Assembly: GCA_041651035.1 (NCBI GenBank)
Contig: JBAZKC010000003.1
Span: 69,153 to 133,152 of the forward strand
DNA: 64,000 nt
Source: Candidatus Omnitrophota bacterium
GTDB taxonomy: Bacteria; Omnitrophota; Gorgyraeia; Gygaellales; Profunditerraquicolaceae
Direction: 5' to 3'
The notes under the pieces: generated by a model
What the model saw: the letters and a program-made list of their open reading frames with translations, nothing else
The model's database searches: none
What the model was told of the DNA's origin: nothing
Shown: positions 6,647 to 64,000 of the stretch, piece after piece
How the letters are laid out: the number at the start of each line of letters is the position of its first letter
How positions within the stretch are numbered: position 1 is the first letter of the stretch
Program-made: the position numbers and the translations under genes

Positions 6647-7779
6647 GAAAGAATTATTTATTAACCCCGGGGCCTACCCCTCTGCCGCCTGAGGTTTGTG
6701 AAGCGATGGCGCGGCCGATAATCCATCACCGCACGCCGCAATTCCAGGCGGTATTAAAAGAGGCTGTGGAAGGCTTAAAATACGTGTTTCAGACCAATAA
6801 CGACATTTTTATATTAACTTCTTCCGGAACCGGCGCGATGGAAGCGGCGGTAATAAACTTTTTATCTTCCGGTGATACAGCGTTGACAGTTGAAACAGGC
6901 AAGTTCGGCGAAAGGTGGACGGAAATTTGCAAGGCTTATGGTATCAATACGGAAGTCATGAAAGTAGAATGGGGTAAGGCAGTCTTGCCTTCGGAAATAG
7001 AAAAGAAGCTGAATGCCAACCCTGCCATAAAAGCGGTATTCGTTACCTTATGCGAAACTTCAACAGGCGTGGTAAATGATATTGAAGGTATAGGCAAAAT
7101 CGTAAAGAACACCGGAGCGATATTAGTCGTAGATGCCATCAGCGGCTTAGGAGCCATTGATTTAAATTCGGACGGCTGGTTTTGCGATGTGGTAGTATCC
7201 GGTTCACAAAAAGGCCTTATGCTTCCTCCCGGGTTAGGCTTTATTTCAGTAAGCCCTAAGGCATGGAAATCAGCAGAAAGTGCCAAATGCCCAAAATATT
7301 ATTTTGATCTAAGGAAAGCAAAAAAAGCGTTTGATAAAACCGATACGCCTTTTACTCCCGCGATATCATTGGTTATCGCGCTTAACGAAGCTTTAAAGAT
7401 GATAAAACAGGACGGGCTGGAGAATGTATTCCTGCGCCATAAAAAGATGGCGGATGCCACCAGGCAGGCGATGGCAGCGTTGGGATTAGAATTATTCGCG
7501 CCTACGGCGGCTTCAGACGTGGTGACTGCGGTTTGCGCCCCGGGAGGGATAGACGGAGAAAAACTGGTTAAGACTATGCGGGATACTTATGGGGTGACTA
7601 TAGCCGGCGGCCAGGACGAGTTAAAAGGCAAGATATTCAGAATAGCCCATATGGGATATATCGAAGAGTTTGATATTATCATGGGTATTTCATGTTTAGA
7701 AAAGGTGCTGTATCAGATGGGGTATAAGTTTAATCTGGGAGCCGGCGTAAAACAGGCGGAAGCGGTTTTTTTAAAATAA
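6643..7779 (+). CDS. class V aminotransferase (serine-pyruvate/phosphoserine aminotransferase family)
   Basis: [10 protein letters not shown]-terminus and PLP-lysine region SGSQKGL. Adjacent to serA, so probably the phosphoserine aminotransferase step. Confidence 0.75.
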
Positions 7780-7809: not shown

Positions 7810-9396
7810 ATGATAAAAATACTAGTCAGTGATCCTTTATCGCAAGAAGGGCTGGATATTTTAAATGAGGTCAAAGAGTTTAAGGTGGATGTAAAGACCG
7901 ATTTAAAACCGGATGCCCTTAAAAGTATAATTAAAGATTACGATGCCCTGGTGGTAAGAAGCGCTACTAAGGTAAGTAAGGATATAATCAACGCGGCTGA
8001 CAGGTTAAAGGTGATCGGCCGGGCGGGAGTAGGGTTGGATAATGTCGATCTGGACGCGGCTACGCAAAAAGGCATTATCGTAATGAATACTCCCACGGGA
8101 AATACCATTTCTACGGCGGAGCATACTATGAGCATGATCCTGTCGCTTTCCAGGAATATCCCGCAGGCTGACGTTTCTACCAAGAAAGGCGAATGGAAAC
8201 GTTCCAAATTCATGGGTGTTGAACTCTACGGTAAGACGCTGGGCATAGTGGGCTTAGGCAGGATAGGCTCAGAGGTGGCAAAAAGGTCTTTATCGTTCGG
8301 AATGAAGATCTTAGCGTTTGATCCCTATTTATCGCGCGAGGTCGCCCAGACCCTGGGGATAGAAGTAGTGGAATTAAAAGAACTCCTGGAGCGTTCCGAT
8401 TATATCACCGTCCATACTCCTCTTGGTGAAGATACGAGGCACATGATCTCAAAAGCCGAATTTGATATTATGAAAAAGGGCGTGCGTATAATTAATTGCG
8501 CCCGCGGCGGGATAATTGATGAACAGGCGCTTATAAACGCGGTTAAAGAAGGCAAGGTCGCTGCGGCCGCCCTGGATGTTTTTGAGAAAGAGCCTTTATC
8601 GCCAGACAGCGAGCTCTTGAAATTAGATAATATTATTACCACTCCCCATTTAGGCGCTTCCACAGAAGAGGCGCAGGTTAATGTGGCTATTGAGGTAGCC
8701 GAAATAGTGCGCGACGCGCTCTTAAAAAGAGGCGTGCGTAATGCCGCCAACTATCCTTGCCTGGAAGCCGAGGTTTGCAAGGTCCTGGAGCCGTATATAA
8801 ATTTGTCAGAAAAACTGGGAGGATTTTCAGCGCAATTAGTTGAGGGGAGGTTTCAGGAACTAAATATAAATTATAGCGGAGAAATAACCGCTTATGATTT
8901 AAGCCCTTTGACCATGGCTTTAGTCAAGGGATTGTTGGCGCCAATATTGAAAGAGACGGTGAATTTCGTTAATGCCGTAGCCTTAGCTAAAGAGCGGGGC
9001 ATAATGATCAGAGAATCCAAGTCTTCTAAAGAGGCGGAGTTCGTGAATTTGGTACAATTAGAAATTAAGACCGATAAAGAAACCAAGGCGATCTCCGGGA
9101 CGCTGTCTTCAAATAAGCAGCCCCGGATAGTCAAGGTGGATGATTATTACGTGGAATTGTCGCCCCTGGGCGATATGATATTCATACAGAATTGGGATAA
9201 GCCCGGCATCATCGGTAATTTAGGCACGTTTTTGGGCAAACACAATATCAATATCGCGGCAATGACGTTCGGCCGGGAAAAGCCGGGAGGAAAGGCCATC
9301 AGCGTGTTAAACGTCGACAGCGCTGTTTCCATTGGTATATTGGATGAGATAAAGAAAATAGATAATATCTTGTTAGCAAGGAGCATAAGACTATGA
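7810..9396 (+). CDS. serA: D-3-phosphoglycerate dehydrogenase with C-terminal ACT domain
   Basis: NAD-binding GIVGLGRIGSEVA and catalytic RGGIIDE..AL. 528 aa including ASB/ACT regulatory domains. Confidence 0.9.
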   Translation: MIKILVSDPLSQEGLDILNEVKEFKVDVKTDLKPDALKSIIKDYDALVVRSATKVSKDIINAADRLKVIGRAGVGLDNVDLDAATQKGIIVMNTPTGNTISTAEHTMSMILSLSRNIPQADVSTKKGEWKRSKFMGVELYGKTLGIVGLGRIGSEVAKRSLSFGMKILAFDPYLSREVAQTLGIEVVELKELLERSDYITVHTPLGEDTRHMISKAEFDIMKKGVRIINCARGGIIDEQALINAVKEGKVAAAALDVFEKEPLSPDSELLKLDNIITTPHLGASTEEAQVNVAIEVAEIVRDALLKRGVRNAANYPCLEAEVCKVLEPYINLSEKLGGFSAQLVEGRFQELNINYSGEITAYDLSPLTMALVKGLLAPILKETVNFVNAVALAKERGIMIRESKSSKEAEFVNLVQLEIKTDKETKAISGTLSSNKQPRIVKVDDYYVELSPLGDMIFIQNWDKPGIIGNLGTFLGKHNINIAAMTFGREKPGGKAISVLNVDSAVSIGILDEIKKIDNILLARSIRL

Positions 9397-11468: not shown

Positions 11469-12752
<1,284 letters not shown>

Positions 12753-12780
12753 AGACAGGGCTTATTGTCCGAATTAACCC

Positions 12781-17330: not shown

Positions 17331-18118
17331 AAAACAGGATAATCACTTCAACAATACTCATCGGAGTTATCGGAGGGGTTATATTTGTTGACTGGCTGTG
17401 CGGGTTATTAGTGGCTGCTTTTATTATCGCGGGTTTATACGAATTTTTCACCATGCTGGAGCGTAAAGGGATAAGCATATATAAATATGTCGGCATAGGC
17501 ATAGGCGCCATAATCCCTCTTTCTATAGTTTTCCGCTTTGAGCCTACCAGGAAATGGGAATTACTGTGTATTGTTCTAATATTACTATTCCTGATCATTA
17601 TGCAATTCAGGCGCCGCCAGAACAGCGGAGCTATAGTGGGGATCTCGACAACCATATTCGGCATAGTTTATGTTTCCTGGCTTCTTTCGTTTTTGATAAA
17701 GATAAGGTATCTTGAAGGAGGGCTGGGCCTGTTAGCTGCGGTATTGCTTATTACCAAATTAAGCGATATAGGCGCCTATCTTATAGGGATGCGTTTCGGG
17801 AAAACTCCTTTGATCCCCCGCATAAGCCCGAAGAAATCCGTGGAGGGTTCTATCGGGGGTCTGGTTTTCGGCGTATCAGGGTCCTTGGCGGCAAGTTCGT
17901 TCTTGCAGTTGTCATTTTTGCATACCATATCGCTGGGTATATGCTTAAGCGTTTTGGCTCAATTAGGGGATTTGTCCGAATCCTTGATGAAACGCGACTG
18001 CCAGGTAAAGGACTCCGGAAATATCTTCCCGGGTTTAGGCGGAGTTTTAGATACGATCGACAGCCTGCTCTTTACCGCTCCGGCATTTTATTTTTACATG
18101 GTACTTATTTTGAAATAA
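17324..18118 (+). CDS. cdsA: phosphatidate cytidylyltransferase
   Basis: Polytopic membrane protein with CTP_transf_1 signature SDIGAYLIGMRFGKTPLIPRISPKKSVEG. Confidence 0.9.
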   Translation: MLKNRIITSTILIGVIGGVIFVDWLCGLLVAAFIIAGLYEFFTMLERKGISIYKYVGIGIGAIIPLSIVFRFEPTRKWELLCIVLILLFLIIMQFRRRQNSGAIVGISTTIFGIVYVSWLLSFLIKIRYLEGGLGLLAAVLLITKLSDIGAYLIGMRFGKTPLIPRISPKKSVEGSIGGLVFGVSGSLAASSFLQLSFLHTISLGICLSVLAQLGDLSESLMKRDCQVKDSGNIFPGLGGVLDTIDSLLFTAPAFYFYMVLILK

Positions 18119-18302
18119 GTTATATGGCTCAAACTTACCCCGCCTCGTAAGATATGCCAAAATTCTCTTCGTTCCCTTTAAGGAACTCTGCTAATTTTGA
18201 CATATTCGGCGGGATAATTCGCAGACGCTTATTTAGCATCAAAGAGAGGCAGCTATAATTTACGTCGCTCCTTCGGAGTCTCCGTAAATTATCTGCTCAT
18301 TA
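18119..18302 (+). repeat. copy A of a repeated structured intergenic element (candidate cis-regulatory RNA/sRNA or MITE-like repeat)
   Basis: Shares with copy B (42539-42685) the motifs CTCGTAA, AAAATTCTCTT, a GTTCC/GGAAC hairpin and the 17-nt core TCGGCGGGATAATTCGC. Its long 3' hairpin arms (GCAG[CT]ATAATTTACG / CGTAAATTATCTGC) differ in sequence from B but stay complementary. Both copies end GCTCATTAA. Confidence 0.45.
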
Positions 18303-19457
18303 ATGAAACGCATTGCCATATTAGGTTCAACCGGTTCGATAGGCGTAAATGCTTTAAAAGTGATCAGGCATTTTCCCGACAGGTTTCAGGTCACAGGGCT
18401 AAGTACTAATTCCAGCATTGATATATTGTATGAGCAAATAAAAGAATTCCGCCCTTTGTTTGTCTGCGTCGGGGACGCAAAGGCGGGCAGGGAATTGAAG
18501 GGCAGGCTTAAACCCTCCACCAGGCTTTTAGTCGGAAAGGAAGGTTTGGAAGCCCTGGCCGCGGACGCAAAAGTTGATGAGGTCCTCTTGGCGATAAGCG
18601 GTTTTTGCGCGCTATCGCCTTTATTAAAGGCGATAGAATCCGGTAAGCAAGTCGCGCTGGCAAATAAAGAGGCATTAGTCGCGGCAGGGTCTATAGTAAT
18701 GAATAGGGCGGCTTCCCACAAAGTAAATATCATTCCTGTGGATAGCGAGCAATCAGCGATCTGGCAGTGCCTGGAAGGGGAGAGGCTAAGCGGGCTAAAG
18801 AAGATCTATCTTACCGCTTCAGGAGGGCCTTTTTGGCAGGCCCGGCGCCAAGACCTGAAAAGCGTTACCATAAAGAAGGTCTTGGATCATCCCAGGTGGA
18901 AAATGGGCAAGAAGATCAGCGTTGATTCCGCCAGCCTCATGAATAAAGGCTTAGAGCTTTTAGAGGCGATGTTTTTGTTTAATGTCGCAAGCGATAAAAT
19001 AGAGATAATTCTGCATCCGGAAGCCGTGGTTCATTCCATGGTGGAATTCATAGATGGATCTATATTGGCGCAATTGTCAGCTACCGATATGCGTATTCCC
19101 ATACAGTATGCTTTTTCCTATCCGGAGAGGCTGCCTAACGCCTCCAGTAGCATAGATTTTTGCAAATTGAGAAATTTGCATTTCCAAGCTCCGGACTTCA
19201 GGAAGTTCCCTTGTTTAGGCTTGGCTTACCGGGCCGCGGATGAACTGGGGACTATGCCAGCGGTTTTAAACGCCGCCAATGAAGTAAGCGTAGAAGCGTT
19301 TTTGAATAAGAAGATCAAGTTTGTTTCCATACCCAAAGTTATTGAAAAAGTCTTAGACAGCCACCGCAATAAGCTCGATCCTGATTTAAGCGATATATTG
19401 CATGCGGATGAATGGGCCAGACTTAAGGCCCATGACAATGTCAGGAGATTAAACTAA
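18303..19457 (+). CDS. dxr: 1-deoxy-D-xylulose 5-phosphate reductoisomerase
   Basis: IAILGSTGSIGVNAL N-terminus. 384 aa. No SD upstream; the start codon abuts element A. Confidence 0.95.
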   Translation: MKRIAILGSTGSIGVNALKVIRHFPDRFQVTGLSTNSSIDILYEQIKEFRPLFVCVGDAKAGRELKGRLKPSTRLLVGKEGLEALAADAKVDEVLLAISGFCALSPLLKAIESGKQVALANKEALVAAGSIVMNRAASHKVNIIPVDSEQSAIWQCLEGERLSGLKKIYLTASGGPFWQARRQDLKSVTIKKVLDHPRWKMGKKISVDSASLMNKGLELLEAMFLFNVASDKIEIILHPEAVVHSMVEFIDGSILAQLSATDMRIPIQYAFSYPERLPNASSSIDFCKLRNLHFQAPDFRKFPCLGLAYRAADELGTMPAVLNAANEVSVEAFLNKKIKFVSIPKVIEKVLDSHRNKLDPDLSDILHADEWARLKAHDNVRRLN

Positions 19458-39445: not shown

Positions 39446-42400
39446 ATGGCTAAAATACTTATCATTGGTAATTCCGCGGCGGGTTTTTCCACCTGCGAAA
39501 ATCTGCTTAAGGGATCTCCTGCCCAGGAAATAACCGTTATCTCTAAAGAAGAATATCCGGCGTATAAAAGGTACTTGCTTGCCGATTATTTAAGCGGATC
39601 GGTAAAGGATGATGAGCTTTTTTTATGCGGCGCGGATTATTATAAGAAAAATAATATAAATTTCCTGCCCGGATCAGAGGTGGAGAGGCTAGATACCAGG
39701 AAACAGAGGATAATTTTAAAAGGCAATACTAAGATCAATTATGATTATCTGGTTATTGCCTCAGGCTCAGTGATCAAACTTCCTGATATACCCGGTAAGG
39801 CCAAAGACGGAGTAGTGGCTTTTTATACGCTAAAAGACGCAAAGCTGGTTAAAGATAAATTGATGCTCGCTCAGACTGTATGTGTTATAGGACAGGATGA
39901 GGCGGCTTTAAAGATCGCTGAGGCAGCCGCGCTAAGAGGTAAAGAGGTCAAGATCGTCGCTTACGCGGATTTTGTTTATCATGGCCAGAATGACAAAATA
40001 GAGTTAATTTCCGGAGCGCAGCCGCAGGAATTTATAGGAGAAGGAGCTTTGCAGGCGTTGAAATTAAGCAGCGGTAAGGTTATCGGGACTAACCTGGTAT
40101 TAGTAGCCGGAGGCCGCATCCCTTCGACAGGTTTCTTAAAAGAGTCAGATATAAAAACCGATCAGGGTTATATTATAGTAGATGATAATATGCGCACGAA
40201 CCTTAAAAACGTGTTTGCCTGCGGCAGCGTTTGTAAAAAAGAAGGTTCTCCGGCAGCAGAAAAGACCTGGGAAGAATCTGTTCGTGAGGGAACTTTGGCC
40301 AGCCGGCATTTGATCAATCTGCTGGAAGGAAAAAGCGAAGGTGCTATGTCATTAGATGATTTAATTCAGCTTGCCGCTACAGGCAGGCAGGCAATATTAA
40401 AAGCCGCCCAAGATGCCGTAGAGGCGGCGATAAAAGAGAAAGGCGCCAGCCATAACATAGGATTTCCGGAAACTAATTATTATCTGCCTTTGATAAACGC
40501 GTTATTAAAATTAGAGGTCAAAGATTTAGGCGGATGCCTGGAGTCTTTAAAACAGATCAAGGACTTAGGCGATAATAAAGCAGCTCCTGGCAGCCTCAAC
40601 GTCGATTCTTTAGGCGGCCTGCTTAACCAGGGATTAGCAACTCTTCTTTGCGAAGAGATCTTAGCGGCGCTTAAATATTCAAATAAAGAGCATCCGCGGG
40701 AGAATTATGCCGGATTCCTGCCGGATACATTATTAAGGTCGCTGGGTATCCAGCTTGTAGATGGCAGGATAGCCGGTATTGCCGTAATATTAGGCGCGGC
40801 TCCTGATGAAGATTCGGCAGTGCGCCTGATAAGGGATTTCCAAAGCAGGAGCATCGTGAGTATCCTGGCGGGGAATATAGACGGCAGGAGCCTGAAGAAG
40901 CAGTTAGAGAGCAAAAATATAGAAATAGGTTTGGATAATTATATAGTGGCTTTAGGCGAAGATTACCTATCCGCGATTTACGCGGTCAACTGGGCGGTAA
41001 GGGCGCCGTTAATGTATGGCGGGATAAAAAGCGGGCAGTGGGGAGACATTCTCAAATACACCCGGCAGAAAGTCCCCGCGTTTGTCCTGCTCCTGGGGCA
41101 TGTAGACGAGGTTTTAGCGGCTACGGGCCTGGGGGCTTTAGCCATGGGTTTTCCTATTATTACAGATTTAGATATTCCCCAGCTGGGCAAGATCGATACT
41201 ACTTTATTTGAAGCCCTGGTCACGGAAAAGGATTATACGAAACTGGCGGCAAAATGCATAGAGATAAGAGGGCTTAAGGTAAAGATCACCCGCGTTCCCG
41301 TGCCGGTACCTTACGCGGCGGCATTTGAAGGCGAGCGTGTCAGGAAAGAACAATTGCATGCTGAGTTCGGAGGAAAGAGCAGCACGGCTTTTGAATATTT
41401 GACTACTAAAGAAACCGGCGCGGTTGAAGACGGTAAGGTAGAATTGATAGGCCCGGATATAGATTGCCTTGAAAAAGGCAGTAAGTCTATGCCGCTGGCG
41501 ATAGTAGTTGAGGTAGCCGGACGCAAGATGCAAAAGGATTTTGAGCCTATCCTGGAACGCCAGATACACCGTTTTATGAATTACGCTATGGGCCTGATGC
41601 ATATCGGCCAGCGCGATATGAACTGGATCAGGATAAGTAAAGATGCCTTTAATAAGGGCTTCAGGCTAAAACATATCGGCGTGATACTGCACGCCATGTT
41701 ACATCAGGAATACGGCGCTATCGTGGACAAAGTGCAGGTCAGGCTTTATACGCGGCAAGCTGACCTGGAGGGATTATTAGCCGGAGTAAAGAAGGTTTAT
41801 GATGAGCGCGATGAACGCATAAGCGGCATGGTAGATGAGAGCGTGGATACGTTTTATTCGTGTTTATTATGCCAGTCATTTGCCCCTAATCACGTTTGCG
41901 TTGTTACGCCTGAACGCTTAGGATTATGCGGCGCGTATTCCTGGCTGGACGCGAAAGCCTCTTTTGAGATCACTCCTACAGGGCCGAATCAACCCATAAT
42001 AAAAGGCCCTATACGCGATGAGAGGTTGGGCCAGTGGGATAATATCAACGAATTCGTGGCACAGAAGTCCAATAAGACTGTTGAGAGTGTGAGCATGTAT
42101 TCACTAATGGTAGCTCCCCAGTCTTCCTGCGGTTGTTTTGAGTGTATCGTCGCGATAATCCCGGAGGCAAACGGGGTGATGGTTGTGCACCGCGATCATT
42201 CGGGCCAGACGCCATGCGGGATGACCTTTACCGCTTTAGCCGGATCGGTAGGCGGAGGGATCCAGACTCCGGGTTTCCTGGGTGTGGGCAAATTATATAT
42301 ATTAAGCAAGAAATTTATCTTGGCTGAGGGCGGCCTTAAACGCGTTGTCTGGATGCCTAAGGAATTAAAAGAGGCCCTAGGTGATAAATTGAAGAAACGG

Positions 42401-42532
42401 GCGGAAGAGCTGGGAAGCCCGGATCTGATTGATAAGATCGCGGACGAAACCATAGCTACGACAACAGAGGATTTGCTAAGGTTCCTGGAAAAAGTAAGCC
42501 ATCCCGCCCTGGGTATGGAACCGATAATGTAA
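39446..42532 (+). CDS. fusion protein: N-terminal FAD-type pyridine nucleotide-disulfide oxidoreductase-like domain (~300 aa) + full-length bacterial acetyl-CoA synthase (AcsB, CODH/ACS beta subunit, ~728 aa)
   Basis: N-terminus KILIIGNSAAG..YPAYKRYLL (FAD Rossmann, ferredoxin-reductase/NirB-like). C-terminal 728 aa carry AcsB motifs GFPETNYYLPLI, GRKMQKDFEPILERQIHRFMNY, A-cluster cysteines CLLCQSFAPNHVCVVTPERLGLCGAYSWLDAKASFEI and SSCGCFEC, and C-terminus IDKIADETIATT..HPALGMEPIM. Confidence 0.8.
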   Translation: MAKILIIGNSAAGFSTCENLLKGSPAQEITVISKEEYPAYKRYLLADYLSGSVKDDELFLCGADYYKKNNINFLPGSEVERLDTRKQRIILKGNTKINYDYLVIASGSVIKLPDIPGKAKDGVVAFYTLKDAKLVKDKLMLAQTVCVIGQDEAALKIAEAAALRGKEVKIVAYADFVYHGQNDKIELISGAQPQEFIGEGALQALKLSSGKVIGTNLVLVAGGRIPSTGFLKESDIKTDQGYIIVDDNMRTNLKNVFACGSVCKKEGSPAAEKTWEESVREGTLASRHLINLLEGKSEGAMSLDDLIQLAATGRQAILKAAQDAVEAAIKEKGASHNIGFPETNYYLPLINALLKLEVKDLGGCLESLKQIKDLGDNKAAPGSLNVDSLGGLLNQGLATLLCEEILAALKYSNKEHPRENYAGFLPDTLLRSLGIQLVDGRIAGIAVILGAAPDEDSAVRLIRDFQSRSIVSILAGNIDGRSLKKQLESKNIEIGLDNYIVALGEDYLSAIYAVNWAVRAPLMYGGIKSGQWGDILKYTRQKVPAFVLLLGHVDEVLAATGLGALAMGFPIITDLDIPQLGKIDTTLFEALVTEKDYTKLAAKCIEIRGLKVKITRVPVPVPYAAAFEGERVRKEQLHAEFGGKSSTAFEYLTTKETGAVEDGKVELIGPDIDCLEKGSKSMPLAIVVEVAGRKMQKDFEPILERQIHRFMNYAMGLMHIGQRDMNWIRISKDAFNKGFRLKHIGVILHAMLHQEYGAIVDKVQVRLYTRQADLEGLLAGVKKVYDERDERISGMVDESVDTFYSCLLCQSFAPNHVCVVTPERLGLCGAYSWLDAKASFEITPTGPNQPIIKGPIRDERLGQWDNINEFVAQKSNKTVESVSMYSLMVAPQSSCGCFECIVAIIPEANGVMVVHRDHSGQTPCGMTFTALAGSVGGGIQTPGFLGVGKLYILSKKFILAEGGLKRVVWMPKELKEALGDKLKKRAEELGSPDLIDKIADETIATTTEDLLRFLEKVSHPALGMEPIM

Positions 42533-42538
42533 TAGTAA

Positions 42539-42685
42539 GTTATGCGTTATCCCGTCTCGTAAAACACATAAAAATTCTCTTTAGTTTCCTTCGGAAACTT
42601 TGATAATTTTTATGTACTCGGCGGGATAATTCGCGCATATAACTTACGTTGCGCTTCGCACGAACGTAAGTTATGCGCTCATTAA
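42539..42685 (+). repeat. copy B of the repeated structured intergenic element
   Basis: Same motif order as copy A: CTCGTAA, AAAATTCTCTT, AGTTTCC-TTC-GGAAACT hairpin, core TCGGCGGGATAATTCGC (42618-42634). Long 3' hairpin CGCATATAACTTACGTT / AACGTAAGTTATGCG, ending GCTCATTAA. Its 5' boundary GTAAGTTATGCG is a 12/12 direct repeat of the hairpin's right arm. Confidence 0.45.
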
Positions 42686-42734: not shown

Positions 42735-43538
42735 ATGCCTATTAATTCCTTCCCAGATAGCATAAGAAAAACAGCCATTACACTATTTGTTTTGGGTATT
42801 ACTTCTTTTCTTTACGCCGCGCCGCAGCAGCCGAGCTTGGATTTATCCCGTGATTATGGCTACCCTGACCTGCTTTCTCCACAGGAAGAAAGAGACCTGT
42901 CTAGATTGCAGAAAGAGGCAAGGCTGTATAGGGCTCAGGGGCTGGAATTACAGCATCTGGGTAACATTGATGACGCGTTTACCCTATATCAAAAAGCCGT
43001 AGAGTTGGATCCTTCGTATGCCATAGCTTTTAACGATCTGGGTGTAATATACGAGGCAAGAGGAGCGCTTGAGCAGGCAGAGGAGTGTTATCTAAAGGCC
43101 ATAAATATCGAGCCGGATTATATGAGCGCCTATACGAATCTGGCATTGCTATACGAGAACAAGCGCGATCTTGGCAAGGCTGCCGTTTATTGGCAGAAAA
43201 GGGCGGAGTTAGGTTTACCTAATGATCCCTGGACACAGAAGGCAGAGAAGCGCCTGGAAGACATAAAACTTACTTTATCAAATGATCCTTCCACTGGAAA
43301 TGCCCAGGAACGGGAGGTCATAGAATTATTAAGAGATGTGGCGACGCAGAAGTCCGCTGCCAGGCAGGATGATAAAGGGCTCTCCCGTAACCACTTTGAT
43401 AAAGCAAAAAGGAGTTATCTTAAGGGTGATTACGCGACAGCCATAAAAGAAGCGTTAGATGCCCAGCAGTTGGATCCTTCTAATCGCCAGATCGAAGATT
43501 TTATTGATAAGACCCGGACAAGGGCCTTATCAAAATAA
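42735..43538 (+). CDS. secreted tetratricopeptide-repeat protein
   Basis: Signal peptide. At least 4 TPR units (AFTLYQKAVELDPSYAIAFNDLGVIY..., AEECYLKAINIEPDYMSAYTNLALLY...). Confidence 0.75.
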   Translation: MPINSFPDSIRKTAITLFVLGITSFLYAAPQQPSLDLSRDYGYPDLLSPQEERDLSRLQKEARLYRAQGLELQHLGNIDDAFTLYQKAVELDPSYAIAFNDLGVIYEARGALEQAEECYLKAINIEPDYMSAYTNLALLYENKRDLGKAAVYWQKRAELGLPNDPWTQKAEKRLEDIKLTLSNDPSTGNAQEREVIELLRDVATQKSAARQDDKGLSRNHFDKAKRSYLKGDYATAIKEALDAQQLDPSNRQIEDFIDKTRTRALSK

Positions 43539-46200: not shown

Positions 46201-47595
46201 ATGAAGATTCTTTTAGCCGCATCTGAGATTGTGCCTTTTGCCAAGACCGGAGGCTTAGCAGACGTAGCAGGGGCCTTACCCTTAGCATTGGAAGACTTAG
46301 GGCATGAGGTAATCGTAGCTGTCCCTAAATATAAGGTTATCCAGTCTTTTAAAGGACAGGAGCAGATCAAAAAAACGAAGTCCGGTATCCCCTACTATAT
46401 TATCGGAAGCAATATTAAGGTATATTTTATCGAGAATGACCAATATTTTAACCGCGACGGCTTATACGGCGATAAGGCCGGAGACTTCGCGGATAATTTA
46501 GACAGGTTCTCTTATTATTGCGATGCCGCGTTAAAGTTATTGAAAGAAATAAAATTCAAGCCGGATATTGTCCACGTGCATGATTGGCAGGCGTCGCTGA
46601 TCCCGGTATATTTAAAAACCCGCTACGCCAATGACGATTTTTATAAGGGTATAAAGACAATATTGACTATACATAATATTGGTTACCAGGGCTTGTTCGC
46701 CCGCGAGGAATTCTCCAAGCTGGGCTTAGACTGGAGCCTGTTTAACATAGAAGGTTTTGAGTTTTACGGCAAGATAAATATCTTAAAGGCCGGTATGGAA
46801 TTTTGCGATTATATAAATACGGTAAGCCCCACATACAGCAAAGAAATACAGACAGAAGAATTCGGTTTCGGACTGGAGGGGGTTTTAAATAAACGCCGCG
46901 ACTGCGTCTTTGGTATATTAAACGGGCTGGATTATTCTATCTGGAATTCCCGGGATGATAAATTCATCGTGAAGAATTATTCCCTTGAGGATATCCAGAA
47001 TAAATATAAGAATAAAGAAGACCTGCAGGCATTTTGCAAACTCCCGGTAAAGATGGATATTCCGGTCTTTGGTATTGTATCCAGGTTAGCCGAGCAGAAA
47101 GGGTTTGACATATTAGCCGAAGCCATAGATACCATATGTAAAATGGGCTTACAATTGGTGATCTTAGGCACGGGCGACCAGAAATATCATAAGATCCTGG
47201 AAGATATCGTAAAAAAATACCCCAAGGTGATCTCTCTGCACTTAAAATTCGACGATTCTTTGGCGCATAAGATATACGCGGGTTCGGACATATTCCTTAT
47301 GCCTTCTAAATATGAGCCTTGCGGTTTAGGCCAATTGATCAGCCTTAAATACGGCACGATCCCATTGGTATTTAAGACCGGAGGCTTAGCCGACACGGTA
47401 AATAATGACAACGGGTTTATATTCGACCGTTACAGCAGCGATGAGTTGGTCAAGACCATGAAGACGGCGATCGCGGCGTTTAAGGACAAGAAAAAATGGC
47501 GCGCGTTAGTGGTGGCCGCGATGAAATGCAATTATTCCTGGGAAGGCTCAGCTAAGAAATACGTGCAGTTGTATGAAAAGGCGAAAGCAAAATAA
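46201..47595 (+). CDS. glgA: glycogen synthase (ADP-glucose type, GT5)
   Basis: N-terminus MKILLAASEIVPFAKTGGLADVAGALPLAL. 464 aa. Confidence 0.9.
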   Translation: MKILLAASEIVPFAKTGGLADVAGALPLALEDLGHEVIVAVPKYKVIQSFKGQEQIKKTKSGIPYYIIGSNIKVYFIENDQYFNRDGLYGDKAGDFADNLDRFSYYCDAALKLLKEIKFKPDIVHVHDWQASLIPVYLKTRYANDDFYKGIKTILTIHNIGYQGLFAREEFSKLGLDWSLFNIEGFEFYGKINILKAGMEFCDYINTVSPTYSKEIQTEEFGFGLEGVLNKRRDCVFGILNGLDYSIWNSRDDKFIVKNYSLEDIQNKYKNKEDLQAFCKLPVKMDIPVFGIVSRLAEQKGFDILAEAIDTICKMGLQLVILGTGDQKYHKILEDIVKKYPKVISLHLKFDDSLAHKIYAGSDIFLMPSKYEPCGLGQLISLKYGTIPLVFKTGGLADTVNNDNGFIFDRYSSDELVKTMKTAIAAFKDKKKWRALVVAAMKCNYSWEGSAKKYVQLYEKAKAK

Positions 47596-48223
47596 AAAAC
47601 AGATTATCCTGGGGCTTACCGGCAGTTTTGGCAGCGGTAAGACCACGGTTGCCGGTATGTTTAGGTCTCTGGGCGCCTATATCATAGACGCCGACAGCCT
47701 GGCGCATGGCTGCTTAAAGCCGGGAGGGCCAGGTTATAAAAAAATAATCAACGCGTTCGGCAAGGGTATCCTTTGCGGGAATAAAACCATTGACCGTAAG
47801 CAATTAGCCAGGGTGGTATTCAATAACAGGCCCCTGTTATTGAAACTAAACGGTATCATACATCCGCAGGTTATCAGAGCCATAGGGAATAAAATAAGAT
47901 CCCTAAAGGCAGGGGTTATCGTTTTAGATGCCCCTCTTTTGTTTGAGGCCGGTTTAAATAAGGCCGTAGATAAAATAATCGTAGTAAAAACAAACAGGAA
48001 AGAACAAGTCAAAAGGATCTATAGCAAGGGTTTATTTACTAAGGCGGATATTTTAAAACGTATCAAATCCCAGATTCCCCTGGCGCGAAAATCGCGTTTA
48101 GCGGATTTTATAATAGACAATAATGGTACGATACAGGAAACCAGGAAACAAGCAGCAGATATTTGGAAATCTCTTGCGGCCGTAAAGCGGGTAGGCGGCT
48201 TCCGGGGATCAATCCGCCCCTGA
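47573..48223 (+). CDS. coaE: dephospho-CoA kinase
   Basis: ILGLTGSFGSGKTTVA P-loop and IIDADSLAH. Confidence 0.85.
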   Translation: MKRRKQNKKQIILGLTGSFGSGKTTVAGMFRSLGAYIIDADSLAHGCLKPGGPGYKKIINAFGKGILCGNKTIDRKQLARVVFNNRPLLLKLNGIIHPQVIRAIGNKIRSLKAGVIVLDAPLLFEAGLNKAVDKIIVVKTNRKEQVKRIYSKGLFTKADILKRIKSQIPLARKSRLADFIIDNNGTIQETRKQAADIWKSLAAVKRVGGFRGSIRP

Positions 48224-48252
48224 TCTTTAGCGGGCTCATTTAGGAGGATGAC

Positions 48253-62992: not shown

Positions 62993-63002
62993 TCGCCCTC
63001 AA

Positions 63003-63040
63003 ACAACTTACGTTCACTCGCACTCCGTAAAGCATACATT
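63003..63040 (+). repeat. truncated third copy of the 3' hairpin module of the repeated element
   Basis: AACTTACGTTCACTCGCACTCCGTAAAG. ACTTACG pairs with CGTAAAG at one mismatch, and the inner CTCGCACTCCG resembles copy A's CGCTCCTTCGGAGTCTCCG. Confidence 0.3.
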
Positions 63041-63048
63041 CGTTTAAA

Positions 63049-64000
63049 ATGAACAGCCATAAGATATTAAAGATCCCCACCCCTAATGCCGCGCTTTCGG
63101 ATAAATTAAGCAAGGAGCTCGGCATATCCGGTGTCCTGTCCCAGATATTGATAAACCGCGGCTTAAGCAGTATTGATGAGGCGGATAAATTCTTAAACGT
63201 AAGCTCAGGGCACTTCCTGGATCCTTATTCTTTTTCGGATATGCGTAAAGCTGTAGACCGGCTTAAGAAAGCGGCCAGGGATAAGGAAAGGGTAATGGTT
63301 TTTGGTGATTACGATGTGGATGGCATAACCGCGCTTACCCTGTTAAAATCCACGCTTATGGAAATGGGCGTGGATACAGTGCATTACCTGCCGCACAGGA
63401 TCAAAGAAGGCTATGGACTTACTAAAGACATCCCGCGCCTTGCCGCAAGCAAAGATGTAAAACTTTTGATTACCGTTGATTGCGGGACGAGCAATCATAA
63501 AGAGATAGCAGAACTCAAACGCCACAATATCGATACGATTGTAACCGACCATCATGAACCCGCGCAGGCTGACCTGCCCCCCGCCCTATGCATTATTAAC
63601 CCTAAACTAAAGAATTCAGGTTATAAATACAGGGATCTGGCTGGTGTGGGCGTGGCTTATAAATTCTGCCAGGCAGTCACAGGCTCGAAGCTGCTTGAAG
63701 ACTTAGACCTGGTTTCATTAGGCACTATCGCTGATAGTGTCCCGCTTACAGGCGAGAACCGCCTTATAGCTAAAGAAGGGTTATCGCGGCTTTCGCGGAC
63801 AAAAAAAGAAGGCTTAAAAGCCTTAATAGAGAATGCCGGCATGAAAGGCCGTAAGTTTAATTCTACGTATGTTAGTTTTATATTGGCCCCCCGCATTAAT
63901 GCCAGTGGGCGCATGGACTCAGCAGAAACTTCTTTGAATCTGCTGATGAGCCGGGAGAGAAAAGAAGCGGATGAGCTGGTTAAGGTCTTAGAGGCGCATA
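63049..64000 (+). CDS. recJ: single-stranded-DNA-specific exonuclease RecJ (N-terminal part; continues beyond window)
   Basis: DHH motifs VFGDYDVDGITA and DHH (TDHHEP). Confidence 0.85.
   Translation, partial: MNSHKILKIPTPNAALSDKLSKELGISGVLSQILINRGLSSIDEADKFLNVSSGHFLDPYSFSDMRKAVDRLKKAARDKERVMVFGDYDVDGITALTLLKSTLMEMGVDTVHYLPHRIKEGYGLTKDIPRLAASKDVKLLITVDCGTSNHKEIAELKRHNIDTIVTDHHEPAQADLPPALCIINPKLKNSGYKYRDLAGVGVAYKFCQAVTGSKLLEDLDLVSLGTIADSVPLTGENRLIAKEGLSRLSRTKKEGLKALIENAGMKGRKFNSTYVSFILAPRINASGRMDSAETSLNLLMSRERKEADELVKVLEAH

Follow-up and report, generated by a model that had tools for sequence, protein, structure and literature searches.

Copies A and B, two structured intergenic repeats in the 64,000-nt stretch of DNA analysed here (the window, which comes from a Candidatus Omnitrophota MAG), are probably members of an Omnitrophota family of mobile, mosaic, palindromic repeats that resemble MITEs and REPINs. 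The family is mobile. Its elements insert into intergenic DNA at or beside a TAA that is typically the upstream gene's stop codon, and therefore fill the stop-to-start gaps of tightly packed operons; once inserted, copies decay where they stand. In the subtype to which A and B belong, the left-end hairpin has been lost and the central hairpin is distinctive.

Copies A and B in the window

On the + strand of the window the gene order around copy A is uppS-cdsA-dxr-rseP, with 184 nt between cdsA and dxr. This spacer (18119-18302) is bounded by the cdsA stop and the dxr ATG, as had been stated (the cdsA ORF ends at 18118, the ATG starts at 18303), and it contains no GGAGG-type Shine-Dalgarno sequence (SD) 5' of the ATG. 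Copy B is flanked by a fused ACS/CODH gene, whose stop is at 42532, and a TPR gene that starts at 42735. The sequence-only reading had noticed that the two loci share, in the same order, CTCGTAA, AAAATTCTCTT, a small hairpin, the 17-mer TCGGCGGGATAATTCGC, a terminal hairpin and GCTCATTAA, and we confirm this; the shared blocks are absent elsewhere in the window and their agreement is far above that of shuffled sequence. The 17-mer had been placed at 18216-18232, a slip of 10 nt; it occupies 18206-18222 in A and 42618-42634 in B. The apical GTTCC/GGAAC hairpin is confined to A and B. At each locus, either strand folds far better than its shuffled counterparts.

In what follows, hp0, hp1 and hp2 are the left-end, central and terminal hairpins of the family, and R1 is the covariance model of linker, hp2 and tail. 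The parts of the two copies are:

18116-18302, + strand: copy A, whole inserted element, without counterpart in syntenic relatives; R1 match at 18249-18303
18119-18137, + strand: 5' tail of copy A, GTTATATGGCTCAAACTTA, which aligns with ...CATAAGTTATTTGGCTGAACTTACCCC of full-length copies, e.g. L132
18139-18213, + strand: hp1 of copy A (subtype I), supported by folding; about 20 further copies have the same architecture with other stem sequences
18214-18220, + strand: conserved linker (A)TAATTC of copy A, 5' of hp2; its AATTC is conserved across the family
18221-18296, + strand: hp2 of copy A, from folding, family comparison and R1; subfamily relatives in L116, L031 and L037
42536-42685, + strand: copy B, whole element, TAA-GTTATGCG ... 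GCGCTCAT-TAA; R1 match of 69 bits, element missing from L137 and L139
42547-42629, + strand: hp1 of copy B
42630-42632, + strand: linker of copy B
42633-42678, + strand: hp2 of copy B, GCGC-AT-ATAACTTACG ... CGTAAGTTAT-GCGC

Copy A includes the present cdsA stop, the TAA at 18116-18118, and ends in ...GCTCATTA, its last TAA (18301-18303) overlapping the dxr ATG. Its hp1 has an outer CCCGCC/GGCGGG stem, a UCGUAA internal loop, an inner AAAAUU/AAUUUU stem and the apical GTTCC/GGAAC hairpin; its hp2 has a GCAG/CTGC bottom stem, an upper stem ATAATTTACG/CGTAAATTAT and an inner CTCC-TTC-GGAG. The terminal hairpins of A and B do pair with compensatory differences around a 2-nt bulge on the 5' side, as had been proposed. 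For A, one correction is needed: family comparison places the bottom strand at the GCAG of 18221-18224, which adjoins AATTC, not at the second GCAG (18249-18252), and identifies 18225-18254 as an inserted side arm.

The 5' boundary of the element does repeat the right arm of the terminal hairpin, in B as the exact 12-mer GTAAGTTATGCG (42535-42546 and 42666-42677). The switch that had been read into this repeat did not survive comparison with other copies. The 5' tail of A is a remnant, made up of the right arm of hp0 and a CGAACTTA-type linker, and the corresponding strand is lacking in other subtype-I copies, namely those of L129, L133, L022, L036 and others, and copy C. The last of these is found in relative L009, between two genes that a gap of 4 nt separates in the window genome.

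The gene upstream of B deserves a separate remark. Window positions 39446-42532 form one ORF of 1028 aa that combines a pyridine-nucleotide-disulphide oxidoreductase domain with the ACS/CODH beta subunit, and its counterpart in L137 and L139 is two adjacent genes of 421 and 726 aa.

Distribution and anatomy of the family

A scan of metagenome contigs with the motif common to A, B and C (TTACG-N8-30-CGTAANTTNTNNGCTCATT) returned at least 120 loci and at least 126 copies, so the element is indeed a repeated one. The elements are non-coding and about 145-275 nt in size (144-273 nt among the copies listed). The copies listed are flanked by unrelated core housekeeping genes, including ruvA, guaA/B, ftsA, greA, pfk, accC, rplV, topA, murD, nusG, hisF/H, aroC, rpsH, fabF and tpiA, and among the matches listed all flanking proteins that carry organism names are from Candidatus Omnitrophota. 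The family is Omnitrophota-specific, or at least very abundant there. Literature searches found no description of repeats in Omnitrophota.

Several other identities were considered and discarded. The covariance models of Rfam 15 gave no match to A and B (gathering score and E<=10) or to typical copies, which agrees with the earlier failure to recognise a known RNA class and rules out riboswitches, ribozymes, HEARO, tRNA-like structures and all other Rfam 15 families. Integron attC sites were rejected on inspection, as the R'/R'' cores are unmatched and the neighbours are core genes. A scan of a genome collection with AAATTCTCTT...CGGCGGGATAA gave only 6 matches, from unrelated taxa, none of which is recognised by the family model. 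A phage origin was set aside because only one contig of a viral collection has the hp2 motif; that match (L136, IMGVR_UViG_3300044628_000420, positions 2261-2309) may be a misbinned Omnitrophota fragment or a repeat-carrying phage.

Full-length elements (median 191 nt) have the layout TAA-GTGAGG(A/G)C-hp0-CGAACTTA-hp1-TTAATTCGC-hp2-GCTCAT(T)-TAA. Because R1 also matches the opposite strand immediately upstream of most copies, these elements are large imperfect palindromes. In each half a short tail (left, TAA-GTGAGG; right, GCTCAT(T)-TAA) is joined to a conserved hairpin with a bulge, hp0 or hp2, and to a linker, CGAACTTA or TTAATTCGC; between the halves lies the variable, exchangeable hp1. 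Left end and reverse complement of the right end are 70% identical (shuffled controls, 57%). Full-length copies have terminal inverted repeats; the A/B subtype lacks the left arm.

Nearly all of the matches listed show an hp1 ending in ...GGGAT(T)AATTCGC, then the bulged hp2, then TCATT. The bottom stem of hp2 is 4 bp long and falls into four classes (GCGC, GCAG, GCCC and GCAC); above it is a 2-nt 5' bulge, replaced by an extra side hairpin in about one third of the copies listed, and an upper stem of 10 bp, AYAAYTTACG/CGTAARTTRT. The two upper-stem pairs that the search pattern left free covary almost perfectly and are paired in 123 and 124 of the 126 copies listed, with C-G/U-A/G-C and U-A/C-G in use. 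In alignment A3, 99.3% of positions expected to pair do so, a value that none of 500 shuffles equalled. AATTC directly precedes the bottom stem in 96 of the 111 listed copies with a matching bottom-stem strand (126 copies listed in all), and it is invariant in A3.

The central hairpin occurs in several recurrent types, which are freely combined with the stem classes of hp2, giving a mosaic. A, B, C and about 20 others form a subtype with a distinctive hp1 and no left hairpin; this hp1 has an outer YCCCnnC/GnnGGGR stem, a UCGUAA-like internal loop and an AAAUU/AAUUU inner stem. RNAalifold gave no consensus for subtype-I hp1 from a MAFFT alignment, in which the subfamilies are out of register, and the architecture stated here is that of the per-sequence folds, which are all alike.

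Some loci contain more than one module. In L027 (3512-3746) two family members stand in direct tandem, 147 nt apart, and L045 carries a tandem pair of hp2 modules, so hp2 is able to duplicate by itself. Upstream of ruvA, the related contigs L023, L025 and L074 carry elements with similar hp0 and different hp1 and hp2 classes, which suggests module exchange or repeated insertion at this site.

Filled sites, empty sites and decay

In the closest syntenic relatives (dxr 76-78% identical, gene order kept over 20 kb), the cdsA and dxr frames share 4 bp, ATGA (...TTTTGAAATGAAACGC). Three related lineages have no cdsA-dxr spacer at all, and empty sites for A are found in L009-L015. They read AAATGAAAC, without TAA, so that the element itself may carry the TAA; the window sequence is ...TTTTGAAA-TAAGTTATATGG...CTGCTCATTAA-TGAAACGC. 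Given the ATGA overlap of the relatives, the inserted DNA supplies a new cdsA stop and recreates the dxr ATG at its 3' edge. The cdsA-dxr spacer is thus an insertion and no conserved leader.

Empty sites for B occur in L137 and L139, with ACS-to-TPR spacers of 25 and 60 nt (...TAA-TTTTCCTTGACG; window: ...TAA-GTTATGCG...GCTCAT-TAA-ATTTTTCCTTGACG). Presence/absence polymorphism at orthologous sites was also observed at the site of C and at L061, L058, L129 and the coaE-rho junction. The three best comparisons of filled and empty sites (A, B and L061) fit a duplication of TAA, and they also fit elements that end in TAAs of their own without duplication. Insertions at unrelated sites, with terminal inverted repeats, had been named by the sequence-only reading as the outcome that would speak for a MITE and against its structured RNA, and such insertions are what we find.

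The boundaries are closely tied to stop codons. Of 25 full-length left ends, 24 have TAA immediately before GTGAGG, and 13 of these TAAs close a long ORF in frame; most copies listed also have TAA after GCTCAT(T), and tandem elements in L062 have one TAA in common. An ORF on the same strand starts within 80 nt downstream in 92 of the 126 copies listed. The start distances among the copies listed are bimodal, with about 45 between -2 and +7 nt and about 35 at 10-22 nt, where an SD separates element and start, a pattern accounted for by insertion at the stop codons of operons with overlapping or abutting genes (such as cdsA/dxr and clpP/next gene). Gene-sense orientation prevails among the copies listed, both relative to downstream genes (77 vs 21) and to upstream genes (60 vs 18). 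Since 51 of the 55 long ORFs of the window are on one strand and only 25 of the 55 have an SD-like motif, neither the orientation bias nor the missing SD of dxr is a specific argument for an RNA function.

Apart from A and B, the window contains three decayed copies:

12745-12779, + strand: left-end remnant (TAAAGTAAAGACAGGGCTTATTGTCCGAATTAACC), orthologous to a full element in L106
48170-48243, + strand: mini-copy at the coaE-rho junction (...GGGGATCAATCCGCCC..GGGCTCATTT, followed by the rho SD), with a weak R1 match at 48203-48244
62993-63049, + strand: hp2-only copy that fills a spacer, its right arm unpaired, orthologous to a full subtype-I element in L133

The coaE-rho site is empty in L137 and L139, where coaE overlaps rho, and has a full element in L138. 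At its 3' end the coaE frame of the window (47573-48223) runs into the decayed copy; in relatives coaE and rho overlap by 13 nt. The three relics show that there is no strong purifying selection on individual copies, even directly 5' of genes.

No partner gene was recovered in the roughly 0.9 Mb covered. A weak tblastn search of about 0.9 Mb of element loci with approximate Y1 queries gave no match to a transposase, and pairs of element ends 0.3-3 kb apart in the same roughly 0.9 Mb, examined as candidate autonomous copies, enclose only ordinary genes.

Relative L013 has unrelated palindromic intergenic repeats (8371-8500 and 6684-6791, e.g. GATACATGACACTTGACAC...GTGTCAAGTATC and TAACTGGTAACTCGTAA...TTACCAGTTACGAGTTA) in spacers that are short in the window genome, which suggests several repeat families in the clade of the window genome. 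Near polA, L138 (350-1555) and L139 (506-963) have HicAB and RelB/ParE toxin-antitoxin pairs that are absent from the corresponding part of the window.

Mobile DNA, possible RNA roles and relation to known repeats

The sequence-only reading took the differences between A and B as selection on RNA structure. That the hairpins are kept through compensatory changes is borne out; the covariation is not RNA-specific. Sense and antisense strands fold equally well, with no energy asymmetry, and the 1x1 stem mismatches of the family comprise 25 G.T and 34 A.C, with no bias of G·U over A·C. Because there is neither a G·U bias nor a strand asymmetry, the stem covariation is strong yet does not point to RNA specifically.

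A cis-acting structured RNA, acting as leader or switch for dxr and for the gene downstream of B through competition of the terminal hairpin's right arm with the 5' strand for pairing to the left arm, is very unlikely. The alternative pairing exists in A and B in copy-specific form, in B through the exact 12-mer, and the element abuts the SD-less dxr ATG. Against this, the spacer is missing in all close relatives, where dxr is expressed from the ATGA overlap, the 5' strand is not part of the other subtype-I copies, the downstream genes are functionally unrelated, Rfam gives no match, and the gene after B has a strong promoter of its own (TTGACG-16-TATAAT) 3' of the element. Together, these points essentially exclude that dxr has a dedicated leader or switch. 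No sigma-70-like promoter and no intrinsic terminator lies within A or B, so that a promoter or terminator cassette is ruled out too. That the similarity of A and B is due to chance or to an assembly artefact has a negligible probability: nothing beyond the metagenomic origin of the contig speaks for it, the same sequence is also present in independent ENA and Logan assemblies, and there are hundreds of related copies in many samples.

We regard a mobile element domesticated as an RNA module as unlikely. It would serve as intercistronic punctuation, either as a processing or stabilising hairpin or as a folded spacer that joins stop and start, so that downstream genes without an SD, dxr among them, could still be translated. 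The gene-sense bias is consistent with such a role, as is the start codon 1-7 nt after GCTCATT in about one third of the copies listed, too close for an SD to fit; the element is tolerated directly 5' of essential genes, and on inspection of the sequence the tails UAA-G-UGAG and CUCA-UUA could pair and close a four-way junction. However, there is no excess of G.U and no strand asymmetry, and copies decay freely, with stems broken directly 5' of genes in the three relics of the window. Start codons so close are to be expected where elements insert at the stops of genes that overlap or abut the next gene of their operon, an SD-like motif is present in only about half of the long window ORFs anyway, and an insertion bias linked to replication would give the same orientation signal where ORFs lie so largely on one strand. 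A co-opted, secondary RNA role is possible but unsupported.

For the family as mobile repeats, we suggest that the hairpins may be kept as recognition sites of a putative mobilising enzyme, which would read them either as inverted repeats or as folded single-stranded DNA. The elements would be co-transcribed passively with their operons, and gene-sense copies may be better tolerated, or preferentially made by a replication-coupled mechanism. Simple two-ended cut-and-paste does not explain why the A/B subtype is present at many sites without a left inverted repeat, and the gene-sense bias together with start codons no more than 7 nt away (about 45 of the 126 copies listed) would also fit a selected RNA-level role. 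A bolder combination of the two ideas is a phylum-wide element that seeks stop codons and is mobilised as folded single-stranded DNA hairpins by a putative HUH-type or other enzyme, its gene-sense copies being co-opted as intercistronic RNA modules that replace translational coupling by SD-less initiation 1-7 nt past the terminal hairpin in essential operons; we consider this improbable.

REP, REPIN and BIME sequences of Proteobacteria are mobilised by RAYT, a Y1 HUH transposase. Like them, the Omnitrophota units are short, abundant, extragenic and imperfectly palindromic, have conserved flanking bases, sit just past stop codons in operons, show compensatory stem changes and leave decaying singlets; they form inverted doublets that fold into one long hairpin, as REPINs do (here hp0 plus hp2), and combine modules in a mosaic, as BIMEs do. 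Unlike REPs and REPINs, they have no GTAG/CGTC tag, their flanks being AATTC and TCATT, or GTGAGG. They are also longer (hairpins of about 45 nt that carry a side arm or a 2-nt bulge), enclose an exchangeable central hairpin, have TAA at both boundaries and belong to a different phylum, and a RAYT gene was not found in the weak tblastn search of about 0.9 Mb.

Neisserial Correia elements, ERIC/IRU and the pneumococcal RUP and BOX are MITEs with TA or TNA target duplication that are co-transcribed with operons. They resemble the present family in size (100-250 nt), terminal inverted repeats, a short A/T-rich flanking repeat, intergenic location including sites within operons, foldback of the whole element and modular variants (BOX A/B/C). 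There is no sequence similarity, however, and in Omnitrophota the inverted repeats themselves hold conserved bulged hairpins and the element is strongly tied to the upstream stop codon. The palindrome-associated elements (PATEs) derived from IS200/IS605 share subterminal imperfect hairpins with extrahelical bases, insertion beside a short fixed sequence, possibly without duplication, and an orientation bias, as expected from single-strand, replication-coupled transposition. In contrast to PATEs, the end hairpins in Omnitrophota are mutually inverted rather than in the same orientation on one strand, no TnpA/TnpB was found near the copies, and the usual target of 4-5 nt is longer than TAA, the target presumed here.

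The family accounts for many of the "structured" intergenic spacers in Omnitrophota MAGs, and it is a caution that hairpin covariation between repeat copies is no proof of a regulatory RNA. In practical terms, the hp2 motif and R1 provide a marker for repeat masking, for insertion polymorphism at the strain level and possibly for the binning of Omnitrophota contigs. For the biology of this uncultured phylum, whose members are often ultra-small, the finding means that compact operons tolerate structured insertions of about 150-250 nt exactly between the stop and start of essential genes, and it raises the question of how downstream genes such as dxr are translated after the loss of ATGA coupling.
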